The position numbers were made by a program, and so were the translations under genes. DNA of 64,000 nt from a phage. The DNA is taken from the sequence record OZ346189.1. One strand, 5' to 3'. The notes under the pieces were generated by a model. The model ran no database searches, was not told where the DNA came from, and saw only the letters and a list, made by a program, of their open reading frames with translations. Shown here piece after piece: positions 29,231 through 40,503 of this stretch (positions within the stretch are counted from its first letter, which is position 1; each line of letters opens with the position of its first letter).

Positions 29231-30600
29231 TGGAAAAAGGGCAGTATGACGTAGGCACAGATGCTGCCCTCATTGCAATCATGAGTGGTGAGAATGTCTT
29301 CGTTTCAGGACCTGCAGGTTGTGGGAAGACGTATCTCATCAACATGATCCAGTCAATGTATGGAGACTCTTGCATAACGGTTGCCCCGACAGGGGTAGCC
29401 GCTTTAAACGTTAATGGAGCAACAGCACACCGAACATTCGATCTTGCAGCAGGTGTGAGCATGGAGTCGGACTGGACCGCAATAAGGGCAAAAACAGCAA
29501 AGCCTTTGAAAAGCAAGGCATTTACCATCCTAATTATCGATGAAATCTCTATGATCCGTGCTGATAAGTTTATAGAGATGGATAGGAAACTCCGCTTCCT
29601 TCGAAAAAATGACAAACCTTTCGGAGGCATACAGGTCATATTGTTTGGCGATTTTTACCAGGCACCTCCTGTTGTCTCTTCTATGGAGAAGGAAGCCTAC
29701 TTCAACTTCTACCATACGGACCTGTGTTGCTACACCGAATCTTGGAAAGAGCTTGACCTCCACAACATAGCCCTAATAGATCAGTTCCGACAGGAGTCTA
29801 TTCGATTTGCCACAATGCTCAACTGTGTTCGTGAGGGTCGTCGCATAAAAGAGGTTGTAGCAGAACTTAATGCTCGCTGTTACAAAGGTGGTGTACCAAC
29901 AGATGCTCTCACAATTTGCGCCACCAACAAACAAGCAGAGGAAGTAAACAGAAGGTTCTATGATGCCATCAACGCCCCAGAGAAGGTATACACTGGTGAA
30001 ATGAAGGGTAAGTTTCCCTCCACCCTGCCAGTTGAGCAGGAGATGAAGTTGAAAATTGGCATGAAAGTTATGATAACCGCCAACGATGTTGACCCGACGC
30101 ACAAAGTACCTTATTATGTTAACGGAACACGTGCCACAATTGTTAAATTTAAGAACAAGGCGGTGGTGGTAGAGCTTGAAGATGGAACACAGGTTGACAT
30201 AGAGCAGAGGTTGTGGGAGAATAACGAGTATAAGCCCTCTCAGAGATACAACATTGCAGAAAGGAAGATGGAGAAGTTTATAGAGAGGGTAGTGATTGGG
30301 TCATACAAGCAACTTCCTCTGAAATCTGGGTACGCCGTAACATCTCATAAAAGTCAAGGACTTACGCTAGATTGTTACAACCTAGACCTTGGAAAGAACG
30401 GAGCTTTCTCTCCTGGGATGACGTATGTCGCTTTGAGTAGAGTTAAGACAATACAAGGAATAAACTTGTTGCGTCCCCTAAGAGAAGTTGACATTATTGT
30501 TGACCCGCGAGTAGTAGAGTTTTACAATACAACATTCCCTGACTTAGACAAAATTGTCAGGAAAGATTTTGAAACCAGAGCAGAAGAGGGGGACGTATGA
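29230..30600 (+). CDS. SF1B DNA helicase, Dda/Pif1/RecD-like
   Basis: Walker A GPAGCGKT, Walker B ILIIDEIS, motif ILFGDFYQAPPV, motif VTSHKSQG. Confidence 0.75.
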   Translation: MEKGQYDVGTDAALIAIMSGENVFVSGPAGCGKTYLINMIQSMYGDSCITVAPTGVAALNVNGATAHRTFDLAAGVSMESDWTAIRAKTAKPLKSKAFTILIIDEISMIRADKFIEMDRKLRFLRKNDKPFGGIQVILFGDFYQAPPVVSSMEKEAYFNFYHTDLCCYTESWKELDLHNIALIDQFRQESIRFATMLNCVREGRRIKEVVAELNARCYKGGVPTDALTICATNKQAEEVNRRFYDAINAPEKVYTGEMKGKFPSTLPVEQEMKLKIGMKVMITANDVDPTHKVPYYVNGTRATIVKFKNKAVVVELEDGTQVDIEQRLWENNEYKPSQRYNIAERKMEKFIERVVIGSYKQLPLKSGYAVTSHKSQGLTLDCYNLDLGKNGAFSPGMTYVALSRVKTIQGINLLRPLREVDIIVDPRVVEFYNTTFPDLDKIVRKDFETRAEEGDV

Positions 30601-30938
30601 GTTTGTGGAGAAATATCGTTAACTACGTGTGTGGCAATCCGACTCCTGAAGAGAAGGATGTTGTGATTCACGATTTTACTAAAAGATCTCGTGAAAAAGA
30701 TTTACTGCTAACAAAGGTGACCGATAAAGATCCTGCAGTAGGGGACTGGGCAGGTTTTGCGTTTACATCGGACAAATACACCTTTAACAAAGGTGACTAC
30801 CTTGTTGTGGATTTTAACGAAGACATTGAGGGTGCTGAACCTTACTATCAAACCCTTATTGTTGCAGGGTGTGTTAATCTCTCTGCAGGTATGCACAGTT
30901 TGATTCTTTTTGAGCTTGACTCTGAAGACCTTGAGTAG
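30597..30938 (+). CDS. hypothetical protein
   Basis: 113-aa ORF overlapping the helicase stop. Confidence 0.4.
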   Translation: MSLWRNIVNYVCGNPTPEEKDVVIHDFTKRSREKDLLLTKVTDKDPAVGDWAGFAFTSDKYTFNKGDYLVVDFNEDIEGAEPYYQTLIVAGCVNLSAGMHSLILFELDSEDLE

Positions 30939-30999
30939 TAAGATGTGAGTATAAAGGGGAGGCACTCCTCCCCACAAAAACTAAGGAGAGCACCAAACG

Positions 31000-32325
31000 A
31001 TGAGTAAAACCAAATTAGAACTAACCTGGATAGGTAAAAACGAGCGCAAAAAGTTAGAGCCGCACATTTTGTTAGAAGATTCTAGCAAGTCTTACCACAG
31101 CCAGAAAGTGACCGAAAACGATATTTTTGATAATAAACTGATTTTTGGAGATAACTTATTAGCATTGAAGGCGCTAGAGCAAGAGTATGCAGGCAAAGTG
31201 AAGTGTGTTTACATAGACCCACCATTCAATACTGGAAGGGCTTTTGAGCACTACGATGATAGCCTTGAGCATTCCATTTGGCTGGGCTTAATGAGGGATA
31301 GGTTAGAAATAATTCGTAATCTTCTAAGTGATGATGGGGTAATATTCGTTCACTTAGATGATTGCGAAATGGCGTATTTAAAAGTTTTGATGGACGAGAT
31401 TTTTGGTCGTGCAAATCAGTTAAATACCATATCGATGACCACAAATTCCCCTTCGGGATTTAAGGCAACAGGAGCCACAGTTTTCTCCACAGCAAACTTT
31501 TTGCTTGTATATGCAAAAGATCGCACCCAGAAACCGCTTAACAAAATCTATATACCTAAAGGGTATGATACAGGATATAACAAATACCTATTAAACCCGG
31601 ATGACCATTATAAAAATTGGACGTGGTGCGGTATTGCCGATGCGTTTGCAAAGGCCAATGGCTATAAAGATGCAAAAGAGGCCAAGAAAAAACTGCCTGA
31701 TACATTCGATGATGAATTAGCACAATTCGCAATTGATAATGCAGAACGTGTATTTCAATCTGTTGCAATCGGCGGTGGTGCTAAAATAAAGAGAAAAGAA
31801 ACTATCGAGAAGTCAAAGAAAGATAGGGATAAGGTTTATGTACATCCAAATGAAGATGTTGAAGGATTTTATATCGTAAATGGTAGGCAAATGGTCTTTT
31901 ACTCCAACAGGCTTTTGGAAATTGACGGTGATATGCAACCTGCGGAACTAATAACTGATGTTTGGACAGACATTAGTTGGAATGGAATAGCAAATGAAGG
32001 CGGCGTTAGTTTCAAAAATGGGAAAAAACCAGAAGCGCTTTTGAAGCGAATTTTCGAAATGTGTACGCGAGAAGGCGATTTGGTATTGGATTCATTCGGT
32101 GGTTCGGGAACTACTGCTGCTGTAGCTCACAAGATGAAAAGACGTTGGATCTCAATCGAGCTAGGTGATCATTGTCATACCCATATTATTCCGCGCTTGG
32201 AAAAAGTGATCGATGGTGAAGATCAAGGTGGTATTTCTAAGTCTGTAAACTGGGAAGGTGGTGGTGGCTTCCGCTATTACAAACTTACCCCGACCTTAAT
32301 TGCGAAAGATAAGTCTGACCAATAA
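31000..32325 (+). CDS. DNA amino-methyltransferase (N6-adenine or N4-cytosine), beta-class
   Basis: catalytic motif IV VYIDPPFNTG precedes AdoMet motif I LDSFGGSGTT (order IV then I). Confidence 0.75.
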   Translation: MSKTKLELTWIGKNERKKLEPHILLEDSSKSYHSQKVTENDIFDNKLIFGDNLLALKALEQEYAGKVKCVYIDPPFNTGRAFEHYDDSLEHSIWLGLMRDRLEIIRNLLSDDGVIFVHLDDCEMAYLKVLMDEIFGRANQLNTISMTTNSPSGFKATGATVFSTANFLLVYAKDRTQKPLNKIYIPKGYDTGYNKYLLNPDDHYKNWTWCGIADAFAKANGYKDAKEAKKKLPDTFDDELAQFAIDNAERVFQSVAIGGGAKIKRKETIEKSKKDRDKVYVHPNEDVEGFYIVNGRQMVFYSNRLLEIDGDMQPAELITDVWTDISWNGIANEGGVSFKNGKKPEALLKRIFEMCTREGDLVLDSFGGSGTTAAVAHKMKRRWISIELGDHCHTHIIPRLEKVIDGEDQGGISKSVNWEGGGGFRYYKLTPTLIAKDKSDQ

Positions 32326-32339
32326 AGAGTACAATCAAA

Positions 32340-32644
32340 TGATGAAACGTTATAAACCATACACTTTTGAAATCGATTTCGAACTTGACGATATGTTCAC
32401 TGTGGAAGCTCAGGCAGTTGTCCAGTTGCCAGACCCAGAGTGCCGTGATTCTGATGTTGACTATTACGGATTTAGACAAATTACCGATGTGCATGTTTAC
32501 CACAACGGTGAAGAGGTGGACTTCCACCAACTGCCAAACGATTTGCGACACTCAATTTACAAACGTGCAGCCCGTGAACTAGAGTCCTATCTGGATGCAG
32601 CGACGACAGCAGCTGCATTTGCTGAAGAAGTGGGAGGTTTCTGA
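32340..32644 (+). CDS. hypothetical protein
   Basis: track ORF 32300..32644 overlaps the MTase; internal ATG at 32340 preferred. Confidence 0.4.
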
Positions 32645-33039
32645 TGATTACAGGTGTGAAGGTTATCCAATACCACTTAACCAAATTGGAAGATGCTGAA
32701 AAAGAGCTTGCAGAAGTTCTGAATAGTGGATATACTTTGCTATCATGCGCCTGCTCAGACACCTACGCTGTGTGGACACTTATCCGGAAGGAGGAGCCTG
32801 CAGGGATCTTGGTGCCAAACCCTAAGATTATCAGTGAAGTGGATGACTGCTCTCAGGACGGCCTGTCAGAAGGCTGGGAAGTATGGGAAGGTGGTGAAAA
32901 CCCTGCACCAGGTAAGTGGGTAAAATACAAACTACGTAGCGGTGCACAGCACGCTGGATACTCTGATAACCTGGACTGGAGTCATTCTTCACCGGAATCA
33001 TTGGTAAGTGCATATGATATCGTTGCTTTTCAGGAATAA
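32644..33039 (+). CDS. hypothetical protein
   Basis: 131-aa ORF. Confidence 0.45.
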   Translation: MITGVKVIQYHLTKLEDAEKELAEVLNSGYTLLSCACSDTYAVWTLIRKEEPAGILVPNPKIISEVDDCSQDGLSEGWEVWEGGENPAPGKWVKYKLRSGAQHAGYSDNLDWSHSSPESLVSAYDIVAFQE

Positions 33040-33051
33040 GGAGAGAGTGTT

Positions 33052-33534
33052 ATGTCAGATTTTATGTGGAAAGTAGGTTATGCCTCTCCTGAAATGTGCG
33101 AGGCTTGCTTTGTAAAAATAGGCCGCGAGGATATTGACAAAGTGATCTTTAAGTTTCGTGATGTATCTGTGATCGGCAACCGAGTGCTTAAGCACTTAAA
33201 GAATCTGAAGCTCACCAAAAAGAAGTTCTTCGGACTTTTCGAAGAGAAAGTTGATGCTTGGACCCATTGCATTCAGGAAGCTAAATCTCACTACAGTGCT
33301 ATCGTTACCCCAGAACGGGTAGCCAAGATGGAAGGATTCATCAACAGCACAGAGTTTGAGTGCCTAAAGGCTGCCCTTAATAGTTATCCAAAGTGCCTCA
33401 AACACCTTGACAAGTATGTAGAAAAGGATGGGGAAATGTACCTAACCCTGGACGCATATTATGAGATGCAAGAAATTTTAAATTTAGATTTGACATTGGT
33501 ATCCACCGAGTATACAATAGGTATCCGGGTTTAA
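33052..33534 (+). CDS. hypothetical protein
   Basis: 160-aa ORF, RBS aaggagagagtgtt. Confidence 0.45.
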   Translation: MSDFMWKVGYASPEMCEACFVKIGREDIDKVIFKFRDVSVIGNRVLKHLKNLKLTKKKFFGLFEEKVDAWTHCIQEAKSHYSAIVTPERVAKMEGFINSTEFECLKAALNSYPKCLKHLDKYVEKDGEMYLTLDAYYEMQEILNLDLTLVSTEYTIGIRV

Positions 33535-33540
33535 CACTAG

Positions 33541-33567
33541 GCCCTGCCCGAAAGGGTGGGGCTTTTT
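33541..33567 (+). terminator. rho-independent terminator (copy 1 of a repeated hairpin)
   Basis: gccctgcccgaaagggtggggc followed by ttttt; identical hairpin at 44924..44945. Confidence 0.55.
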
Positions 33568-33585
33568 GCATTAGGAGACAGCAAA

Positions 33586-34350
33586 TTGAAATTCATCTAC
33601 AAAGAACACTACCACAAAGGTGTTGTGTGGAGTCTATTTGACGGGTCTGGTGGTGCAGTTATTGACTGGGCAAAAGCTGGGTACCTGTGCCTGTGCTTTA
33701 ATGCAGAAGGTGCTGACCACGGCAGTTATGCAGAGGTGATAACCGATCATCCTAACATTCACTATGTGGATTATTGGATTGACCCATGGTTCCCTCAGGA
33801 AACTTTTTGCATGTATCCAGCTCCAGACTTTATTCTTGCATTTCCTCCGTGCACGCATTTAGCGGTATCAGGTGCTGCACATTTTAAGAAAAAGCTGGCT
33901 AAGGATCCTTTGATCCAAATTAATGCTGTAAAGGATGCTCGGGTTGCGGAAGAGTTGGGAGAGATTTACGATTGCCCGTGGCATGTAGAGAATCCTGTAG
34001 GGGTTATGTCCACACTGTGGCGAAAACCTGATTACCGTTTTCATCCTTCGGATTATGGTGGGTATTTACCGGAGGATGATGTAAACCCCTGGTTTCCTGA
34101 ATTTATAGCTCCACGTGATGCCTACCCAAAAATAACTTGCGGCTGGATAGGCAATGGATTTATAATCCCGGCCACAAAACCTGTCCCGCAAATAGTTGAC
34201 GCGGTTAGCGGGTATTCCATGCAACACGCCAAGCTGGGTGGAAAGAGTGCAAGAACGAAGATGATCCGAAGCCTCACGCCACGTGGCTGGGCAAAAGCCG
34301 TATTCTTAGCAAACGAGCCTGTAGTAAGGAGCAGAATTAATGGGAAGTAA
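33586..34350 (+). CDS. small DNA (cytosine-5)-methyltransferase-like protein, atypical catalytic motif
   Basis: motif I LFDGSGG, motif IV PPCT (Cys kept, Gln replaced by Thr), motif VI VENPVG; track start GTG 33556 lies in the terminator hairpin, TTG 33586 behind RBS aggaga preferred. Confidence 0.55.
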   Translation: MKFIYKEHYHKGVVWSLFDGSGGAVIDWAKAGYLCLCFNAEGADHGSYAEVITDHPNIHYVDYWIDPWFPQETFCMYPAPDFILAFPPCTHLAVSGAAHFKKKLAKDPLIQINAVKDARVAEELGEIYDCPWHVENPVGVMSTLWRKPDYRFHPSDYGGYLPEDDVNPWFPEFIAPRDAYPKITCGWIGNGFIIPATKPVPQIVDAVSGYSMQHAKLGGKSARTKMIRSLTPRGWAKAVFLANEPVVRSRINGK

Positions 34351-36418
34351 ATTTATGGCATCTGCATACAACCGTTTCGGTGAGCCAAACCCGAAAGCAA
34401 TTAAGTATAAAAGTGGGGGAAGTGTGAAACGAGACTATCGTGATGAAAAAGAGGTTGAAACTGTAGAGACTGTTTTAGAAAATACTAAAATCGTCCCTGT
34501 CCCACAACAAAATATCGGTCTGATGGCTGCACAATATTTTGGTGTGCGATCAGCATTGTCCCAAGAAGACGGTGTGACAGTCACTGCAACATATTTCCCA
34601 TATTACGACCGATACGGAAATCTGTCCGGTTTCAAAAAGCGTGACTGGACTATTCCTAAAGAACAAAGGGGCCACTTCTCCGTTGTTGGCATAGTAAAGG
34701 CCAACTCCCAGATGTTTGGTCAAAAGCTGTGTGCATCTTCCAACAACCGTAAGCAGATTAACGTTTGTGAGGGAGAAGGTGATGTTATTGCAGCATGGCA
34801 GGCTGCATATCAGATACAAGTAAAAGGGATTCTCACCAACGCTAAAGCCCCGGCAAAGGTGAAGCAGTGGGCTAAAGAGGTCCAGGACGGGATCGACGCA
34901 GTTATCAACGGTGGTGATCTGGCAGGAAAACCCTGCCTGCCTTTTGTTGGAATTAACTGTGGATGTGCAAACGCAGTAGATACTTTTGCAAACAATGAGA
35001 AGTTTATCCGTAGCTATGGAACAGTTGTGCTGGCAATGGATAACGATGCAGCTAACGAGGTAGAGAAGCAAAAACACGTCATTAAAGGTGTTGAGGCCAC
35101 GCACAATATCGCAGCATTTTTGATGGCTGATAACGTTTACCACGTAGAATACCCTGGTGAAGTAAATGACCCTGACGGGGTAAAAGATATCCGTGACATG
35201 CTGAAGGCTAAAAAGCTGGAAGATATTGTCAACATGTTCCGGCACCCTGTTAAATATGTGCCTGATGCTGTGTCGGATTTAGAAGACTTCTCTATCGAGT
35301 CTTTGCGGAAAAAGACTTCCAACGGGGTAGATATCAGCGCAGAGTTCCCAAAACTGCAAAAAATGCTAAAAGGCTTGCACAAAGGGACACTCGTAATGCT
35401 TACAGGGCCATCAGGGGGCGGTAAAACAACTGTAGCTAAAAAACTGGAACATTGTATTGCAAGATACCTAATGGACCCGACATGCCCGAAGGCTGATGAC
35501 TATGAAGAGGATGATCGTCTATGTATGATCCATCTTGAGGAGGACCCAGAGGAAGCAATTAACTCCTTGTATGCAAACCAGTTAGGGTTTGATGTTAAAG
35601 AGTTTGTTGAAGATCCTAGCCAGTTTTTAACTGATCAAGAACACGCAGAGATTCACCAATCATGGGCAAAAGCTGGAAAAATCAAAGTGTTCAAACATTT
35701 CGGATCTATTCCGGTGGACGAGTTGATTACCAAGCTTAAGCAAATGGTTTGCCTGTACCATTGCCGTTATATTGTGCTGGATCACCTATCCATGGTAATT
35801 TCAGGGCTTAATGTTAAGGATGAGCGAAAAGAACTGGACATGGCTATGACTCAGCTGGCTGCGTTTTGTAAGCAGTTTAACGTGTTTATCTTGGTGATCG
35901 CTCACCTCAAACGTACAGAGATTGTGCCTCCTAAGGACAAGGATGGTAACCCGTTACCTTTCTGGTATCCTGTGCGAAAAGAGAATTTGCGAGGATCGGC
36001 GGGGCTTGAACAGTTGAGTTGGGTAGTCATAGGTGTCGAGGCCGAAGAAATGGTGGATCGTTCTCGTGGACGTGTCCGTCTGGTAGGTCTTAAAAACCGT
36101 CCAGCAAAAACTCTAGGTATTGCTGACACTTTGGTTATGGACCCGCACACAGGTAAGTTCCATGATGCCAGTAATTGGTACTGGGACAAAGAAATGCAAA
36201 TGTTTACAGACGGAGAAGGTGGGGAGGTTGTTTGGAGACCTCAGGCTATGTTTGAGGATCAGGAGCATGCAGTTGTAGAAACACCTATGGGCAAGGTTGT
36301 GGCTGATAAGGTTGTAACTCCTACTGTTAAGCCTGTTGACACGCAGGAAGACCTCCAGTACGATGATCCATCCTCTGACCCGGTCCCTGGTTTTGAGGAT
36401 GATGAAACGCCTTTTTAA
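34340..36418 (+). CDS. bifunctional DNA primase-helicase (T7 gp4-like)
   Basis: N-terminal Toprim-like EGEGDVIAAW and LAMDNDAANE; C-terminal helicase Walker A GPSGGGKTT and IVLDHLSMV. Confidence 0.8.
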   Translation: MGSKFMASAYNRFGEPNPKAIKYKSGGSVKRDYRDEKEVETVETVLENTKIVPVPQQNIGLMAAQYFGVRSALSQEDGVTVTATYFPYYDRYGNLSGFKKRDWTIPKEQRGHFSVVGIVKANSQMFGQKLCASSNNRKQINVCEGEGDVIAAWQAAYQIQVKGILTNAKAPAKVKQWAKEVQDGIDAVINGGDLAGKPCLPFVGINCGCANAVDTFANNEKFIRSYGTVVLAMDNDAANEVEKQKHVIKGVEATHNIAAFLMADNVYHVEYPGEVNDPDGVKDIRDMLKAKKLEDIVNMFRHPVKYVPDAVSDLEDFSIESLRKKTSNGVDISAEFPKLQKMLKGLHKGTLVMLTGPSGGGKTTVAKKLEHCIARYLMDPTCPKADDYEEDDRLCMIHLEEDPEEAINSLYANQLGFDVKEFVEDPSQFLTDQEHAEIHQSWAKAGKIKVFKHFGSIPVDELITKLKQMVCLYHCRYIVLDHLSMVISGLNVKDERKELDMAMTQLAAFCKQFNVFILVIAHLKRTEIVPPKDKDGNPLPFWYPVRKENLRGSAGLEQLSWVVIGVEAEEMVDRSRGRVRLVGLKNRPAKTLGIADTLVMDPHTGKFHDASNWYWDKEMQMFTDGEGGEVVWRPQAMFEDQEHAVVETPMGKVVADKVVTPTVKPVDTQEDLQYDDPSSDPVPGFEDDETPF

Positions 36419-36480: not shown

Positions 36481-39400
36481 ATGAGTATGTGGAATTTTGA
36501 CTTTGAGGCCTCAGGTCTTCTGGACGAGGAAGATCTTTACTACCATTGTGGCCTGTTTAAAGAGTTGAATAAAAATAATTTTATGTTGTTTTTGCCTATC
36601 AATGATAGATCTCATTACAGTGAAGAGGAGGTTGAAAAAGCAAAACAATTTATGCTGGCAAAGCAAGATATCTATCCTAGCTGCTCTGTCCGTATTGCGG
36701 ATTTCAGCCAGCTTGAATGGTGGTTAACCGGGAACTCCGATTGGTCACCCACATCATTAAGTTGTCACAACTGTTTTAGTTATGACTTTATCTTGATGGA
36801 GAAGCTGTCTGGTATTCATTTTGATATGTTCCGTGATCCCAAGTGTATGGGGACAATCAATAATCATCAGGTGAACCTGTTCGACACTCTGCCAATGAGT
36901 CGTATACTATGGCCCGACAGACCGTTACCTAAAGGATGCCCTGATTCTGTATACAATCCTGTTACAAAACGTATGCAGCAGGTAGGTCCTCATGGCCTAA
37001 TGGCGTGGGGGTACGCTTTAGGAAACCAGAAGGTTAAAATTGATGACTGGAGAAATTTACCTCTGTGGAAGTATGTTGATCGTGTATTCGAGGACGTTAT
37101 CATCCAGGAGCTGCTCTGGAAAGAGCTGGTAGCGGAATCAAAAGGTGTATTCTACGGCAAATCTGACATGCAGAACTTTATGTACGATCCAGCCAAAGAG
37201 AAGCCGAAAGGGTTCAAGAAGATTACCTGGAAGAATGCATTACGCCGAGGCATGCTGCAGCACTTCCTGATGGAGCTGCAGGCCCGTCAGGGTGTATACT
37301 TCGACATAGATGGAGCTATTGCTTTACGTGACCGTTGCGATGCGTGGATGAAAGAAATCGCTGATCGTGTTGAACCACAACTACCTTTAAAAGAGCTGTC
37401 AATGTCTCAGCGGCCCAAGTTCCCTGAAAAGCCGTTTAACCAAGACGGGACAATCTCTAATAATGGTTGGAAATGGTTAAAAGATAAGCTTGGCTATCCT
37501 GTAGACATGAGTGCTTTAGAGTTCAAAGCCCCGCCTAAGCGAGCATTTACCTCTACAGGAGATGTCAGCAAGATGGGGATAAAATGGTGTGAAGAGATGG
37601 GCTGCAAAGACCCCGATAAGATGGCTGATTTCTTGAGAGGCTATATTAAGGGCACCTCCACACCACAACCCTTACCTAAAGAGCTGATGGATCAGGCAAT
37701 AAGTGATCTGCAGCAGAAGCGAATGCCTGACTGCAAGATACCTATGAAAATCAGCAATCAGGACGACATCAAGCGATACCTAATCAGTGCTGGTTGGCTC
37801 CCAACAATGTGGAGAACTAAAGATGTAACTAAAGACAGCAAGAAGAAAGCTTTACCTGATGCAGATGTTGATGCACGAGTATATGCATATATGGACGAGC
37901 TTTTGGAGTCAGAGTATTGTGACCTAATTATCAACTTCTGGAACAAAACTGATGCTAAGTTCCAGACAACCGTGCACAAGTTCCGAAGCTTTCCTAACTC
38001 CGAAAGGATTAAAAAGGAAGTATTCGGGAAAATACGTAGAAAAGCCAGGGCACTTATTACTTCTCCGCAACTGAAAGATACGTTTGGACACCTATGCCCA
38101 AATCTTGAAAAATTGAACGGAGAGATGGCTAAAGATATCGTCTTGTGGTTATCATTGCGAAACCGCAGATCGGTCCTTGATCCAATCAAGGAGGATAAGG
38201 TTGATACTGGTCTTCTTAATCACCCACGTTTGAAGATTGACCATAAGCTTCCTGCTAAAAGCTCTGGATTAACAAACACTTCCAGACAGAAACACAGTAT
38301 TTGTGCAAACATGCCTAAACCATCTCCTAAAGTGGTTATGGGTAAAGAGATGCGTAGTCTGTGGGGTGTTCCTCCGGGATACTTTGAGATCGGTATTGAC
38401 GGGTCCAACTTAGAGCAGCTTATCGGGGCTTGGGGTGCCTTTGAGTTCGACAACGGCCTGTATTATGATGTTGTAAGTAATGGCGATGCACACTGTTATT
38501 CAGGAGATACACAAATTCTCACGGAGAAAGGGTGGGTGAGGTTTGAAGATCTTGATCCGGGAACACAAGTGTTCCAGTACGATCACAACACCTCGTCAAT
38601 GAACCTTGTTACTCCATTAAATTACGTTAAGCGTAGTTATTGTGGGGATATGTATCATTTCCACAACAGTAGTGTGGATTTTATGGTTACAGATCAACAC
38701 AGGATGCTGACTGTGGATCACAGAAGCAATAAATTGTTTGAAGATTTGGCAAAAGACCTGAAAGCAGGTAAAGGGTCTAATTCAGGAAGAAGGTTTATCC
38801 ATGCGGCAGAGTTTTATGGGAATACAACCTTATCTCCTGCCCAGGTTAATTTGCTTATTGCTATTCACGATGATGGGCACTTGCATACAAATAAGGACGG
38901 CAGCATCGTGTGCAGGATTCAGGTCGGAAAGGGAAGAAAAGTTGCAACGCTTTTAGATACTTTTTCTGCTCTAAGCCTTAGTTATGTAGAGCAGAGCGGG
39001 AAAACCACAAAAGGGGGCTTACTGGCGAGAAGGTTCCAATTCCACGTTCCGTCCTGGGTATTTGAGTTTTTGGACAACAATAAGGATTTCACCTATAACC
39101 TGATGAACCTTGATAAAGAATCTAAAAACCTGTTTATAGCTTCTTTATCTAACTGGGACGGGTGGGTATCTTCCGAAGGTGGAAAGGTTGCTTACTACTC
39201 CCAGGCCGAGTGCAGGAAGAAATCTGTAGAGGTGGTGTCTGCGCTGGCTACTCAGTGTGGTTTACGGAATAATACGGTGGCGATTCACAAAAAAGGTCGT
39301 GCCGTGCAGCACAGAATCACAATTGGTAGCAAACAGAGAGCAGGGTTGCTGACACTATCTAAAGAGTCTGTCGAGGTGAGCGGTTCTTTGGTTTATTGCG

Positions 39401-40503
39401 TTACCGTCCCTTCTGGAGCAATCATTGTGAGAAGGAATGGTAAAGTGGCAGTGTGCGGTAACTGTAATAACGCCAAAGCTTACTCTTCTGTAGCAGGCAA
39501 GGAGATTTCCCGTAACGATGGTAAACCTATCACGTATGGGGTTATGTATGGGGCACAAAAAGATAAAGTTGCAGATATGCTGGACATCTCCCCAGAGTTG
39601 GGACAAAGGGTAATCGATGCACTCTGGGATGCCAACCCAGGTCTTAAGGGGCGCAAAGAGGATCTGGAGAAATTCTGGGAAGCAACAGGTAAGAAGTTTA
39701 TCTACTCTTTTGATGGTCATGCTATCTGGACCCGATCTAAACACTCTTTACTTAATGCATACCAACAAAATGGCGGTGCATCGTTGTGTGACTTAGTTGG
39801 AATACTCATGCACCACCAGATGGTGAAGCGTGGGTGGTACGATGAAGGTGTTCGTCGTATTATTTATTACCATAAATAACATTGTGGCTTCATAGAGTAA
39901 TCTATGTCGAATAACCTCTTTAACTGCGGGAAGCCTAAACCTTATGGCAAGGTAATCCGCAACGAAGCGCTCAAAAGAGCGAACGCTCAGAGGCCATTCC
40001 GAAAGGAAGTAGACCAGCAAGTGCGGTCGAAATGGGAGGATTCCTGTGGTTGCTTATCATAGGAATATGAGATGGTCCGATCCTACGTGAAAACGTATGG
40101 CTATGCACGTAATGGTGCGGGGTAGCTTAACGACCTACCTGAACTATTGGATGAGTACCAACTTCAAGTGCCTGACACACCGAAGTATAAGACTGTGTAC
40201 ACCTTCGACACAATTGAAGAACTGGAAGCATTTAAGGCAGAGCAGGAAGCCAAACTTCATGTGTTCGACGGTCATAAGTACAAAAAGGCACGCAAGGATG
40301 AGGACGGAAACGAAGTGGTTGACAGAGACGGAAACACGGTGTACGATCCTATCCTGAACGATGACGGAAAGCTTGAACTTATCTGGAGCCCTGTGGGTGA
40401 AATGGTGGTACATTGCTTCTGGCAAGCTTCTAAAATGATGGGAGTCCCGTTCCAGATCACAGGTGAATACTTGTGTGGTCGTAATTGGGGTAATTGTCAC
40501 TAA
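36481..40503 (+). CDS. DNA polymerase, family A (T7-like), interrupted by an intein and a putative group I intron; exons 36481..39873 and 40150..40503
   Basis: Exo motif FDFEASGL; motif A region GIDGSNLEQL...NGDAH; post-intein AKAYSSVAG...ITYGVMYGA; exon 1 ends ...IIYYH; exon 2 starts DEYQLQV and ends RNWGNCH, like the T7 PNWAICH terminus. Confidence 0.75.
38494..39462 (+). mobile_element. intein (323 aa) with LAGLIDADG-type homing endonuclease domain, in the polymerase motif A region
   Basis: in-frame insertion between NGDAH and CNNAKAY; starts CYSGDTQIL, ends VAVCGN with +1 Cys; internal LLIAIHDDGHL and FIASLSNWDGW motifs. Confidence 0.65.
39874..40149 (+). ncRNA. putative ORF-less group I intron splitting the polymerase HDE motif C
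   Basis: exon 1 ends in U (39873), element ends in G (40149); intron GUGG (nt 11-14) pairs with exon CCAU (P1, U-G at splice site) and intron CAUU (nt 7-10) pairs with exon-2 GAUG (P10); in-frame stops exclude an intein. Confidence 0.55.

Follow-up and report, generated by a model that had tools for sequence, protein, structure and literature searches.

Two predicted orphan DNA methyltransferases encoded beside the replication genes of an rV5-like Escherichia coli phage

Organization of the locus

The DNA analysed here (the window) is a 64,000-nucleotide stretch of sequence record OZ346189.1, which derives from an rV5-like E. coli phage of the genus Vequintavirus. The two open reading frames (ORFs) named in the original prediction are present on the plus strand, at 31000..32325 (441 amino acids [aa]) and at 33586..34350 (254 aa), and their products are here called the phage Mod and the small methylase (Table 1). 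Both were said to sit beside replication genes, and this was confirmed: a PIF1/Dda-like helicase of 456 aa is encoded upstream, and a primase/helicase gene (34340 to 36418) overlaps the 3' end of the small methylase gene by 11 nt. However, the two genes do not constitute the DNA modification module that had been proposed. They are kept apart by three ORFs together with one site resembling a promoter and one hairpin resembling a terminator, and their origins are unrelated.

The small methylase is read from a TTG codon. A longer alternative ORF, starting with GTG at 33556, would run through the terminator-like hairpin, and the annotation of phage JeffSchatz gives this gene the same 765-nt extent.

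Table 1. Coordinates of the features of the methyltransferase locus (window positions)
Feature	Position	Strand	Basis
Orphan Type III Mod methyltransferase without C-terminal domain, predicted N6-adenine specificity	31000..32325	+	Profile and sequence matches
Phage Mod motif IV, DPPF, catalytic loop (aa 73-76)	31216..31227	+	Sequence read; aligned with DPPY of EcoP15I and 6k0w Mod
Phage Mod approximate target recognition region (aa 180-335), flanked by the motif IV-VIII and motif X/I blocks	31537..32004	+	Inferred from beta-class layout, EcoP15I domain map, and alignment
Phage Mod motif I, FGGSGTT, AdoMet binding (aa 366-372)	32095..32115	+	Sequence read and alignment
3' junction of captured segment; just before 32316, 11 bp of the E. 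coli gene are missing, shifting the frame to TAA at 32323-32325; residual homology to ~32336-32341	32316..32341	+	DNA alignment and sequence read
Promoter-like TTGACA-17-TACAAT, 11/12 matches, upstream of small methylase gene	33490..33518	+	Consensus scan only; such sites no commoner than in shuffled sequences
Terminator-like hairpin and T run, between upstream ORF and small methylase gene	33539..33564	+	Sequence; terminator in related phage annotations
Small Dcm-like C5-cytosine methyltransferase (predicted), 254 aa, TTG start	33586..34350	+	Ribosome-binding site AGGAG at 33573-33577, 8 nt before start
Small methylase motif I, FDGSGG (aa 18-23)	33637..33654	+	Sequence read; aligned with motif I of DNMT3B and CmoX
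Small methylase motif IV, PPCT (aa 87-90), Cys89 predicted nucleophile	33844..33855	+	Sequence read and conservation; corresponds to K42 Dcm C82
Small methylase motif VI, ENPVG (aa 135-139), Glu135	33988..34002	+	Sequence read and conservation; corresponds to K42 Dcm E128
Small methylase divergent motif VIII region, PRDAYPKITCGW; K182 corresponds to K42 Dcm K175	34111..34146	+	Conservation and alignment
Small methylase conserved C-terminal IRSLTPRG, then terminal helix; resembles motif IX or X	34264..34287	+	Conservation and model

Class, origin, and probable role of the phage Mod

The phage Mod matched Pfam family PF01555 (E = 5.9e-42; 144.5 bits against a cutoff of 26.7) and the PADLOC MTase_III profile PDLC03636 (E = 7.8e-204; profile positions 2 to 444 of 575), and its closest relatives in the PDB are the Type III Mod proteins 6k0w and 4zcf (EcoP15I). 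Motif IV precedes motif I, with the target recognition region between them, as is typical of the beta class; the assignment to the beta-class amino-methyltransferases, made originally from DPPF followed by FGGSGTT, is thus upheld by the profile searches. The protein belongs to the Type III Mod family but does not contain the C-terminal domain (CTD) that contacts Res. No res partner gene was found beside it, its neighbors being the PIF1/Dda-like helicase and small ORFs, and none is present in the JeffSchatz annotation. Like other Type III Mods, it is predicted to methylate adenine at N6 within a short asymmetric site, on a single strand.

What had been missed is that, as judged from the alignment, this amino-methyltransferase represents a shortened version of a Type III Mod found in E. 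coli. Over residues 2 to 440, 422 of 439 amino acids (96%) are identical to those of E. coli Mod WP_024226319 (568 aa), and the four differences within aa 180 to 335 are all conservative. The DNA identity to the chromosomal gene, which occurs in 24 of 5,426 complete E. coli genomes, is 94.9% over 1,318 of 1,326 nt. The host mod gene is located directly upstream of that for a 912-aa protein matching PADLOC REase_III (E = 8.9e-191), and this intact Mod-Res pair, WP_024226319 and WP_024226320, resides in a defense island found in the same form in two strains. Identification of the island as ARMADA II or MADS was considered and rejected: Mod and Res fit plain Type III models, the mad1 match is to one small HTH protein only, and ARMADA II is a separate locus. 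Homology between phage and host begins at the ATG start codon, and the phage protein breaks off within the linker that leads to the CTD, where host residue 441 and approximately residue 522 of EcoP15I align. The GC content is 38 to 40% within the captured segment versus 43 to 49% just downstream. On the phage side, the matches listed place the gene in Vequintavirus alone, with 88 records showing ≥80% identity; no other match exceeds 60%, the highest listed being ~50%. Capture of a Type III Mod subunit from E. coli is accordingly one half of the explanation for the two genes that we regard as probable.

The dN/dS value of mod was 0.074 between phages and 0.086 against the host copy; at the latter value (~0.09) the phage gene is therefore taken to be functional. 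In EcoP15I, the target recognition domain spans aa 263 to 384, the CTD (aa 539 to 644) contacts Res, dimerization occurs via the N-terminal and methyltransferase domains, the Mod2 dimer is a stand-alone methylase, and only one of the two Mod protomers touches Res (PMC4490356). The phage Mod retains the N-terminal dimerization region, the catalytic domain, and a nearly unchanged target recognition region and ends in the linker ahead of the Res-binding domain. Since Type III Mod dimers act as stand-alone methylases, the phage Mod should methylate adenine in the short asymmetric site of the host system itself, and progeny DNA would gain protection from this single Type III enzyme with no nuclease being assembled. 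Premethylation of the phage DNA against the single cognate Type III system is most likely the role of the protein. Loss of the CTD could harm its folding or activity, the sole counterargument being the purifying selection. Any protection has to be narrow, because Vequintavirinae are reported to be exceptionally susceptible to every restriction-modification (R-M) system tested in BASEL, a set to which the cognate Type III system does not belong (PMC8594841).

The extent of the truncation could also fit a different role: the missing part corresponds precisely to the Res-contacting domain of EcoP15I, and the dimerization elements are left in place. The truncated Mod might act mainly as a decoy, pairing with the host Mod via its remaining N-terminal and catalytic-domain interfaces in heterodimers that, for want of the Res-binding domain, are unable to recruit or activate Res, so that restriction is blocked directly. 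Phage and host Mods, being 96% identical, should be able to form such dimers, and the truncated form is kept throughout the genus under purifying selection. However, with a single Res-contacting protomer in EcoP15I, a mixed dimer could still bind Res via its host protomer, and purifying selection also acts on the catalytic motifs and the target recognition region, both of which would be superfluous in a pure decoy. We therefore consider a decoy function unlikely. Equally doubtful is a dual-purpose protein that methylates the host Type III site and also forms Res-blind mixed dimers, by which restriction would be neutralized from the first minutes of infection, before methylation is complete; if this were true, deletion of one domain would have converted a defense subunit into an antidefense protein against its source system.

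Family and chemistry of the small methylase

For the small protein, the profile searches gave a divided answer. It matched phrog_757, annotated as DNA methyltransferase, with an E value of 5e-87, and its motifs are therefore not due to chance, but no match was found in Pfam or NCBIfam, and none to PF00145 even at an E value of up to 10. Three homologues (P0054, P0069, and P0072) score above the PF00145 cutoff of 22 (24.7 to 28.5 bits), through motifs I to IV only. In a profile comparison with canonical C5 enzymes, nothing aligned past motif IV, and the sequence profile of the small methylase gave only marginal C5-methyltransferase matches in the PDB (E, ~0.3). The family comprises at least 2,020 clusters at 50% identity and is present in ~3% of phage genomes; dN/dS of the small methylase was 0.041. 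A scan of the longer family members for informative fusion partners brought up no more than a single protein with an HNH insertion.

The protein has a class I methyltransferase fold with motif I, a Pro-Cys nucleophile, and the motif VI glutamate. No variation in PPC or ENP was seen across 25 homologues, and among 113 family representatives C89 is conserved in 95% and E135 in 98%. In the same 113 sequences, D178, Y180, K182, T184, and W187, all >90% conserved, may stand in for the QxRxR of motif VIII, in a region resembling the DNMT3A sequence RYFWGN. Toward the C terminus, R228 (94%), P232 (92%), G234 (92%), and R233 (68%) are conserved in these representatives, and the predicted model has a helix at residues 233 to 253. 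The ~40 residues between the motif VIII-like strand and IRSLTPRG are conserved, not variable as in a target recognition domain accompanied by motifs IX and X. The description of a minimal C5-methyltransferase-like enzyme having FDGSGG, PPCT, and ENPVG and devoid of a normal target recognition domain consequently stands, the target recognition region being vestigial. However, PCT is no oddity, as had been implied, but the family consensus: the residue after Pro-Cys is Thr in 90 of the 150 listed representatives and Asp in 17. Gln is absent from this position elsewhere too (PCN in DNMT3B and PPCS in CmoX).

Over its full length, the small methylase is 54% identical to the Dcm of phage KarlJaspers (Bas06), with C82, E128, and K175 in register and Ile at the position of K42 Dcm K176. 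The K42 Dcm, which is nearly identical to the KarlJaspers orthologue, produces 5-methylcytosine (5mC) and triggers retron Ec86 (10.1101/2023.08.16.553469). According to this preprint, its overexpression raised msDNA 5mC as measured by LC-MS, the catalytic (C82) mutant was inactive, phage escape mutants map to dcm, and K175 and K176 were assigned to substrate binding by superposition on DNMT3A (10.1101/2023.08.16.553469). The small methylase belongs to a widespread family of small Dcm-like phage proteins, with a minimal C5-methyltransferase fold like that of DNMT3. In the predicted mechanism, the cytosine is flipped out and attacked at C6 by Cys89, Glu135 holds it at N3/N4, and AdoMet donates its methyl group to C5, yielding 5mC. 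This product is assigned by analogy with the 54%-identical homologue, and it forms part of the joint two-gene explanation that we hold to be probable. For the K42 homologue, CCWGG was put forward as the target, an assumption drawn from E. coli Dcm that fits awkwardly with the low msDNA methylation reported in the dcm+ strain MG1655 (10.1101/2023.08.16.553469). A scan of the window for avoidance of palindromes and CCWGG was uninformative (134 CCWGG sites seen versus 159 expected). Two earlier suggestions find no support here: a different C5 chemistry, given the 5-methylcytosine that LC-MS detected for the K42 homologue (10.1101/2023.08.16.553469), and a broad-specificity antirestriction methylase, given the reported exceptional susceptibility of Vequintavirinae to the tested R-M systems (PMC8594841).

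The C terminus and the motif IV context bear on whether a group other than methyl might be transferred, for example, carboxymethyl from host carboxy-SAM as in CmoX, giving a cytosine product other than 5mC. In both proteins, the residue after PPC is small and bears a hydroxyl group (SPPCS in CmoX and FPPCT here), and R233, with its 68% conservation, opens the C-terminal helix in a possible motif X place. Carboxy-SAM is made by E. coli, where CmoX works without a phage CmoA (PMC12783734). However, the small methylase family has FPPC and not the CmoX signature SPPC, and no CmoA or amide ligase gene is located nearby. When the two families were aligned more deeply and their profiles compared, motifs I to IV alone could be matched with any confidence, which makes R233 no more than a candidate counterpart of CmoX R350 or M.HhaI N304. 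An Arg is also present in motif X of DNMT3A, whose methyl donor is AdoMet. With 5mC detected by LC-MS for the K42 homologue, non-methyl transfer appears highly improbable, and methyl transfer remains our preferred reading.

Interpretation and comparison with known systems

The interval probably carries two independent orphan DNA methyltransferases coexpressed with the replication genes, namely, a captured Type III Mod and a small Dcm-like C5-methyltransferase giving 5mC. A literature search for methylation in rV5 and Vequintavirus turned up no methylome, and methylation is not mentioned in the paper describing the rV5 genome; papers on related genera do no more than annotate the gene pair, through HHpred. 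One or both genes might instead be inactive, decayed remnants (a truncated mod pseudogene and a C5-methyltransferase relic devoid of a target recognition domain), as the 11-bp deletion and frameshift that shortened Mod, the score of the small protein below Pfam and NCBIfam thresholds, its divergent motif VIII, and the laboratory restriction sensitivity of these phages could suggest. However, dN/dS is 0.04 to 0.09 in both genes, the catalytic motifs are all intact, the length of the truncated Mod is constant throughout the genus, and one member of the small methylase family is active in vivo, all of which makes decay very improbable.

The PCT-type small methylase and the orphan Mod are ordinary stand-alone DNA methylases, and a new DNA modification is unsupported; the value of the locus lies in annotation and phage biology rather than in new chemistry. 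rV5-like phages serve in O157 typing and biocontrol. The near-exact Mod copy predicts which host defense is evaded, a Type III system of bovine and human E. coli isolates, and phage mod provides a clean natural case of defense gene capture at domain resolution. By analogy with its homologue, the small methylase is a likely trigger of retron Ec86, and rV5-like phages may therefore be limited on hosts carrying Ec86.

Compared with known Type III Mods (EcoP15I 4ZCF, PDLC03636, and WP_024226319), the phage Mod is alike in motif order, N-terminal region, and central target recognition region, whereas it is without the ~128-aa C-terminal domain that makes the Res contact in EcoP15I, has no adjoining res gene, and is carried by a virulent phage. 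CmoX (8YF3), a phage enzyme that carboxymethylates DNA cytosine at C5, differs from the small methylase: it has 372 aa, a full-length PF00145 match (E = 5.9e-53), SPPC, and R350 at the position of M.HhaI N304, and its gene usually adjoins CmoA and ligase genes (PMC12783734), unlike that of the small methylase. The catalytic domains of DNMT3A and DNMT3B share with the small methylase a very small target recognition region and a residue other than Gln after Pro-Cys, at only 13 to 15% identity and with ~285 aa versus 254; no sign of DNMT3-type oligomerization was seen in the small methylase. The K42 and KarlJaspers Dcm proteins have their family, size, catalytic Cys, Glu, and first Lys in common with the small methylase, which has Ile for the second Lys (K176); their carrier is a T1-like siphovirus, whereas that of the small methylase is a 136-kb myovirus.

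Gene content and surroundings of the methylase region

The window is part of a Vequintavirus genome, since its region 30500 to 34500 is 96.7% to 98.8% identical to rV5-like phages, including EdH4, Murica, and V5 (25 listed of 118 matching phage records). The MG0656xx records titled 'Campylobacter phage' (C12, C5, A142, and others), which show 97% to 98.5% identity to the rV5-like E. coli sequence of the window, probably carry wrong labels or represent mixed samples. Reading of the sequence recovered both originally predicted methylase ORFs in place with every quoted motif, and profile searches assigned the large protein to PF01555 (E 5.9e-42) and the small protein to phrog_757 (E 5e-87), indicating that the motifs are not due to chance. 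Both genes lie, as predicted, near replication genes, in the order rIIA, rIIB, PIF1/Dda-like helicase, 113-aa ORF, and 441-aa methylase, followed by three small ORFs, the 254-aa methylase, primase/helicase, and DNA polymerase.

Compared with its 925-aa JeffSchatz counterpart, the polymerase gene is broken at two places, by an in-frame intein-like insert and by a group I intron. The palindromes TGGCCA, GGCGCC, GCTAGC, and CTCGAG are absent from the whole 64 kb, and CTAG and GTAC are strongly under-represented across it, which suggests restriction-site avoidance; avoidance of CCWGG was also looked for in the 64-kb window, and none was found.

Features of the methylase and polymerase region
Feature	Position (nt)	Description
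Adenine methylase gene	31000-32325 (+)	441 aa; DPPF, FGGSGTT; TAA at 32323-32325
ORF	32342-32644	ATG at 32342; phrog_4240, function unknown
Promoter-like site	within 33490-33564, just before the small methylase	near-consensus sigma-70-like, TTGACA-17-TACAAT (consensus match)
Terminator-like hairpin	33539-33564	strong; directly downstream of the promoter-like site, before the small methylase
Small cytosine methylase gene	33586-34350 (+)	254 aa; FDGSGG, PPCT, ENPVG; TTG at 33586, 8 nt after AGGAG
DNA polymerase gene	36481-40500	final 117 aa encoded by 40150-40500
Intein-like insert	38494-39462	323 aa; starts C-YSGDTQILT, ends VAVCGN followed by C; weak Hint_2 match
Group I intron	39864-40099	Rfam RF00028, 64.7 bits, E 3.8e-16

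The small cytosine methylase

The TTG start gives the same 765-nt CDS as the JeffSchatz annotation; a longer ORF starting with GTG was rejected, as it would cross the terminator-like hairpin. A transcript from the promoter-like site would start with this hairpin. The family comprises at least 3546 90%-identity clusters and 2020 50%-identity clusters at E values up to 0.001 and was found in 1504 of 50,697 phage records. Its carriers are 41- to 62-kb phages of E. coli, Salmonella, and Klebsiella, such as the T1-like KarlJaspers, as well as larger myophage genomes (~135 to 165 kb) and phiKO2. A relative was also identified in the E. coli chromosome, in surroundings of lambdoid-prophage type (NinG, RusA, and antiterminator genes); a Dam-family gene (PF05869) lies two genes upstream of it. 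Nearly all members are 210 to 260 aa long, and FDGSG, FPPC(T/D), ENP, WR, D-x-Y-x-K-x-T-x-x-W, and IRSxTPxG are conserved. PCT had been noted in place of the canonical PCQ. The residue after the catalytic-motif cysteine is threonine in 90 and aspartate in 17 of 150 listed representatives, and PCT is therefore the family consensus.

The AlphaFold2 model of the small protein was confident (pLDDT 89.8, pTM 0.89), and its best Foldseek matches were the DNMT3A/3B catalytic domains (E about 1e-6). In the model, the stretch between the last core strand and the conserved C-terminal element is only ~40 residues long, so the enzyme lacks an ordinary target-recognition domain, as had been proposed.

A different C5 chemistry had also been suggested. 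The phage DNA cytosine C5-carboxymethyltransferase CmoX uses carboxy-SAM, is defined by SPPC and an arginine replacing M.HhaI N304, and functions in E. coli on host CmoA (PMC12783734). Its motif IV (SPPCS) resembles FPPCT of the small methylase, and only motifs I to IV aligned in a profile comparison of CmoX (from phage S-B43) with the family, the position of the defining arginine falling outside the aligned part. No CmoA or ligase gene is present near the small methylase. According to a preprint, phage K42 (95.4% genome identity to KarlJaspers) escapes retron Ec86 via mutations in a 711-bp dcm, and expression of its Dcm was toxic only with Ec86 present; by LC-MS, 5mC was raised in msDNA with wild-type K42 Dcm but not with C82A/E128A/K175A/K176A (10.1101/2023.08.16.553469). 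The CCWGG specificity proposed for K42 Dcm was carried over from E. coli Dcm, with a CC mutation in the msDNA stem as its sole support (10.1101/2023.08.16.553469). KarlJaspers has a 711-bp 'Dcm-like' gene whose product carries C82, E128, K175, and K176 at the K42 Dcm positions and is 54% identical to the small methylase of the window over its full length (E 2e-86). Thus, an enzyme reported to make 5mC belongs to this family. Because of the LC-MS result for the K42 homologue, a CmoX-like chemistry acting on carboxy-SAM is very unlikely.

Origin of the adenine methylase

The large protein matched the PADLOC Type III methyltransferase PDLC03636 (E 7.8e-204) over profile positions 2 to 444 of 575 only, and its nearest solved relatives are the Type III methylase subunits (Mods) 6k0w and EcoP15I. 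A DNA search identified a chromosomal gene in 24 of 5426 complete E. coli genomes with 94.9% nucleotide identity over 1318 of the 1326 nt of the phage gene. Its product in strain 2014C-3011 is a 568-aa Mod (WP_024226319), directly followed by a 912-aa protein (Res) with a match to the PADLOC Type III restriction enzyme model (E 8.9e-191); in strain 90-1, both proteins are identical to these and are encoded side by side in the same way. The pair lies in a defence island, which in 2014C-3011 (5059170 to 5076490) adjoins tRNA-Sec. A DrmD-like SNF2 helicase, AbiD, and a mad1-like HTH protein are also encoded in the island, and integrase fragments and an ArdA remnant occur in both loci; that of strain 90-1 additionally contains an AIPR protein.

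The phage Mod is identical to host Mod residues 2 to 440 at 422 of 439 positions. Nucleotide homology begins at the start codon, upstream of which the sequences are unrelated. At its 3' end the phage gene lacks 11 bp of the host gene, and the resulting frameshift leads into its TAA. Homology continues for another ~15 to 20 nt and ends just before the next ATG. The ORF starting within a few nucleotides of this end also weakly resembles phrog_1573 (E 4e-5), labelled 'DNA methyltransferase'. GC content is 38% to 40% inside the captured segment compared with ~42% just upstream and 43% to 49% downstream. Among phages, this Mod is confined to the genus, with 88 records at 80% or higher amino acid identity and none above 60% beyond it (~50% being the highest among the matches listed). 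Judged from its sequence, the large methylase appears to be a captured and shortened E. coli Type III Mod. Since members of the family are normally full-length, host-to-phage transfer would be the simpler direction. The dN/dS ratio, 0.086 for the phage copy against the host copy (dS 0.19) and 0.074 for one phage copy against another, shows that selection maintains the shortened gene. No earlier description of this domain-level link to a complete Type III system of E. coli was found in the literature searched.

Relation of the two genes and predicted role of the phage Mod

The original prediction placed both genes in one DNA-modification module. However, three ORFs of unknown function, the promoter-like site, and the hairpin lie between them, and their origins differ: the large gene was apparently captured from E. 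coli and occurs among phages in one genus only, whereas the small gene comes from a widespread phage family. Annotations of related genera had already paired the small methylase with an N6-adenine methylase (PMC7344957, PMC11370258). The companions of the small methylase differ (Dam-like in KarlJaspers, a PF05869 Dam in a prophage); co-occurrence is common, with no fixed module. Broad-specificity anti-restriction had also been considered, but Vequintavirinae were exceptionally susceptible to restriction-modification in the BASEL study, seemingly without effective protection (PMC8594841). Such sensitivity speaks against either enzyme methylating DNA non-specifically and is compatible with narrow, site-specific protection. 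The observations behind the prediction were thus confirmed and its interpretation was supported in part, the missing recognition domain being supported and the module and broad specificity not.

EcoP15I Mod consists of an NTD (aa 14 to 60), an MTase domain (62 to 262 and 390 to 516), a TRD (263 to 384), and a CTD (539 to 644); dimerisation involves the NTD and the MTase domain, Mod2 functions as a methylase on its own, and one of the two protomers contacts Res extensively through its CTD (PMC4490356). Alignment of the phage and host proteins places the phage stop at about EcoP15I residue 522-531, and on this domain map the phage Mod is predicted to keep the parts for dimerisation, catalysis, and site recognition and to lack the Res-binding domain. 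The common target-recognition region suggests a common specificity of the phage and host Mods. Formation of mixed dimers with host Mod, making the phage protein a putative decoy, is possible; the best-supported mechanism is self-methylation, in which the phage Mod would methylate phage DNA at the site of the matching E. coli Type III system.

The small enzyme is a member of an already known family. The phage Mod adds a new case to a strategy already known, in which a phage carries an orphan methylase derived from its host.
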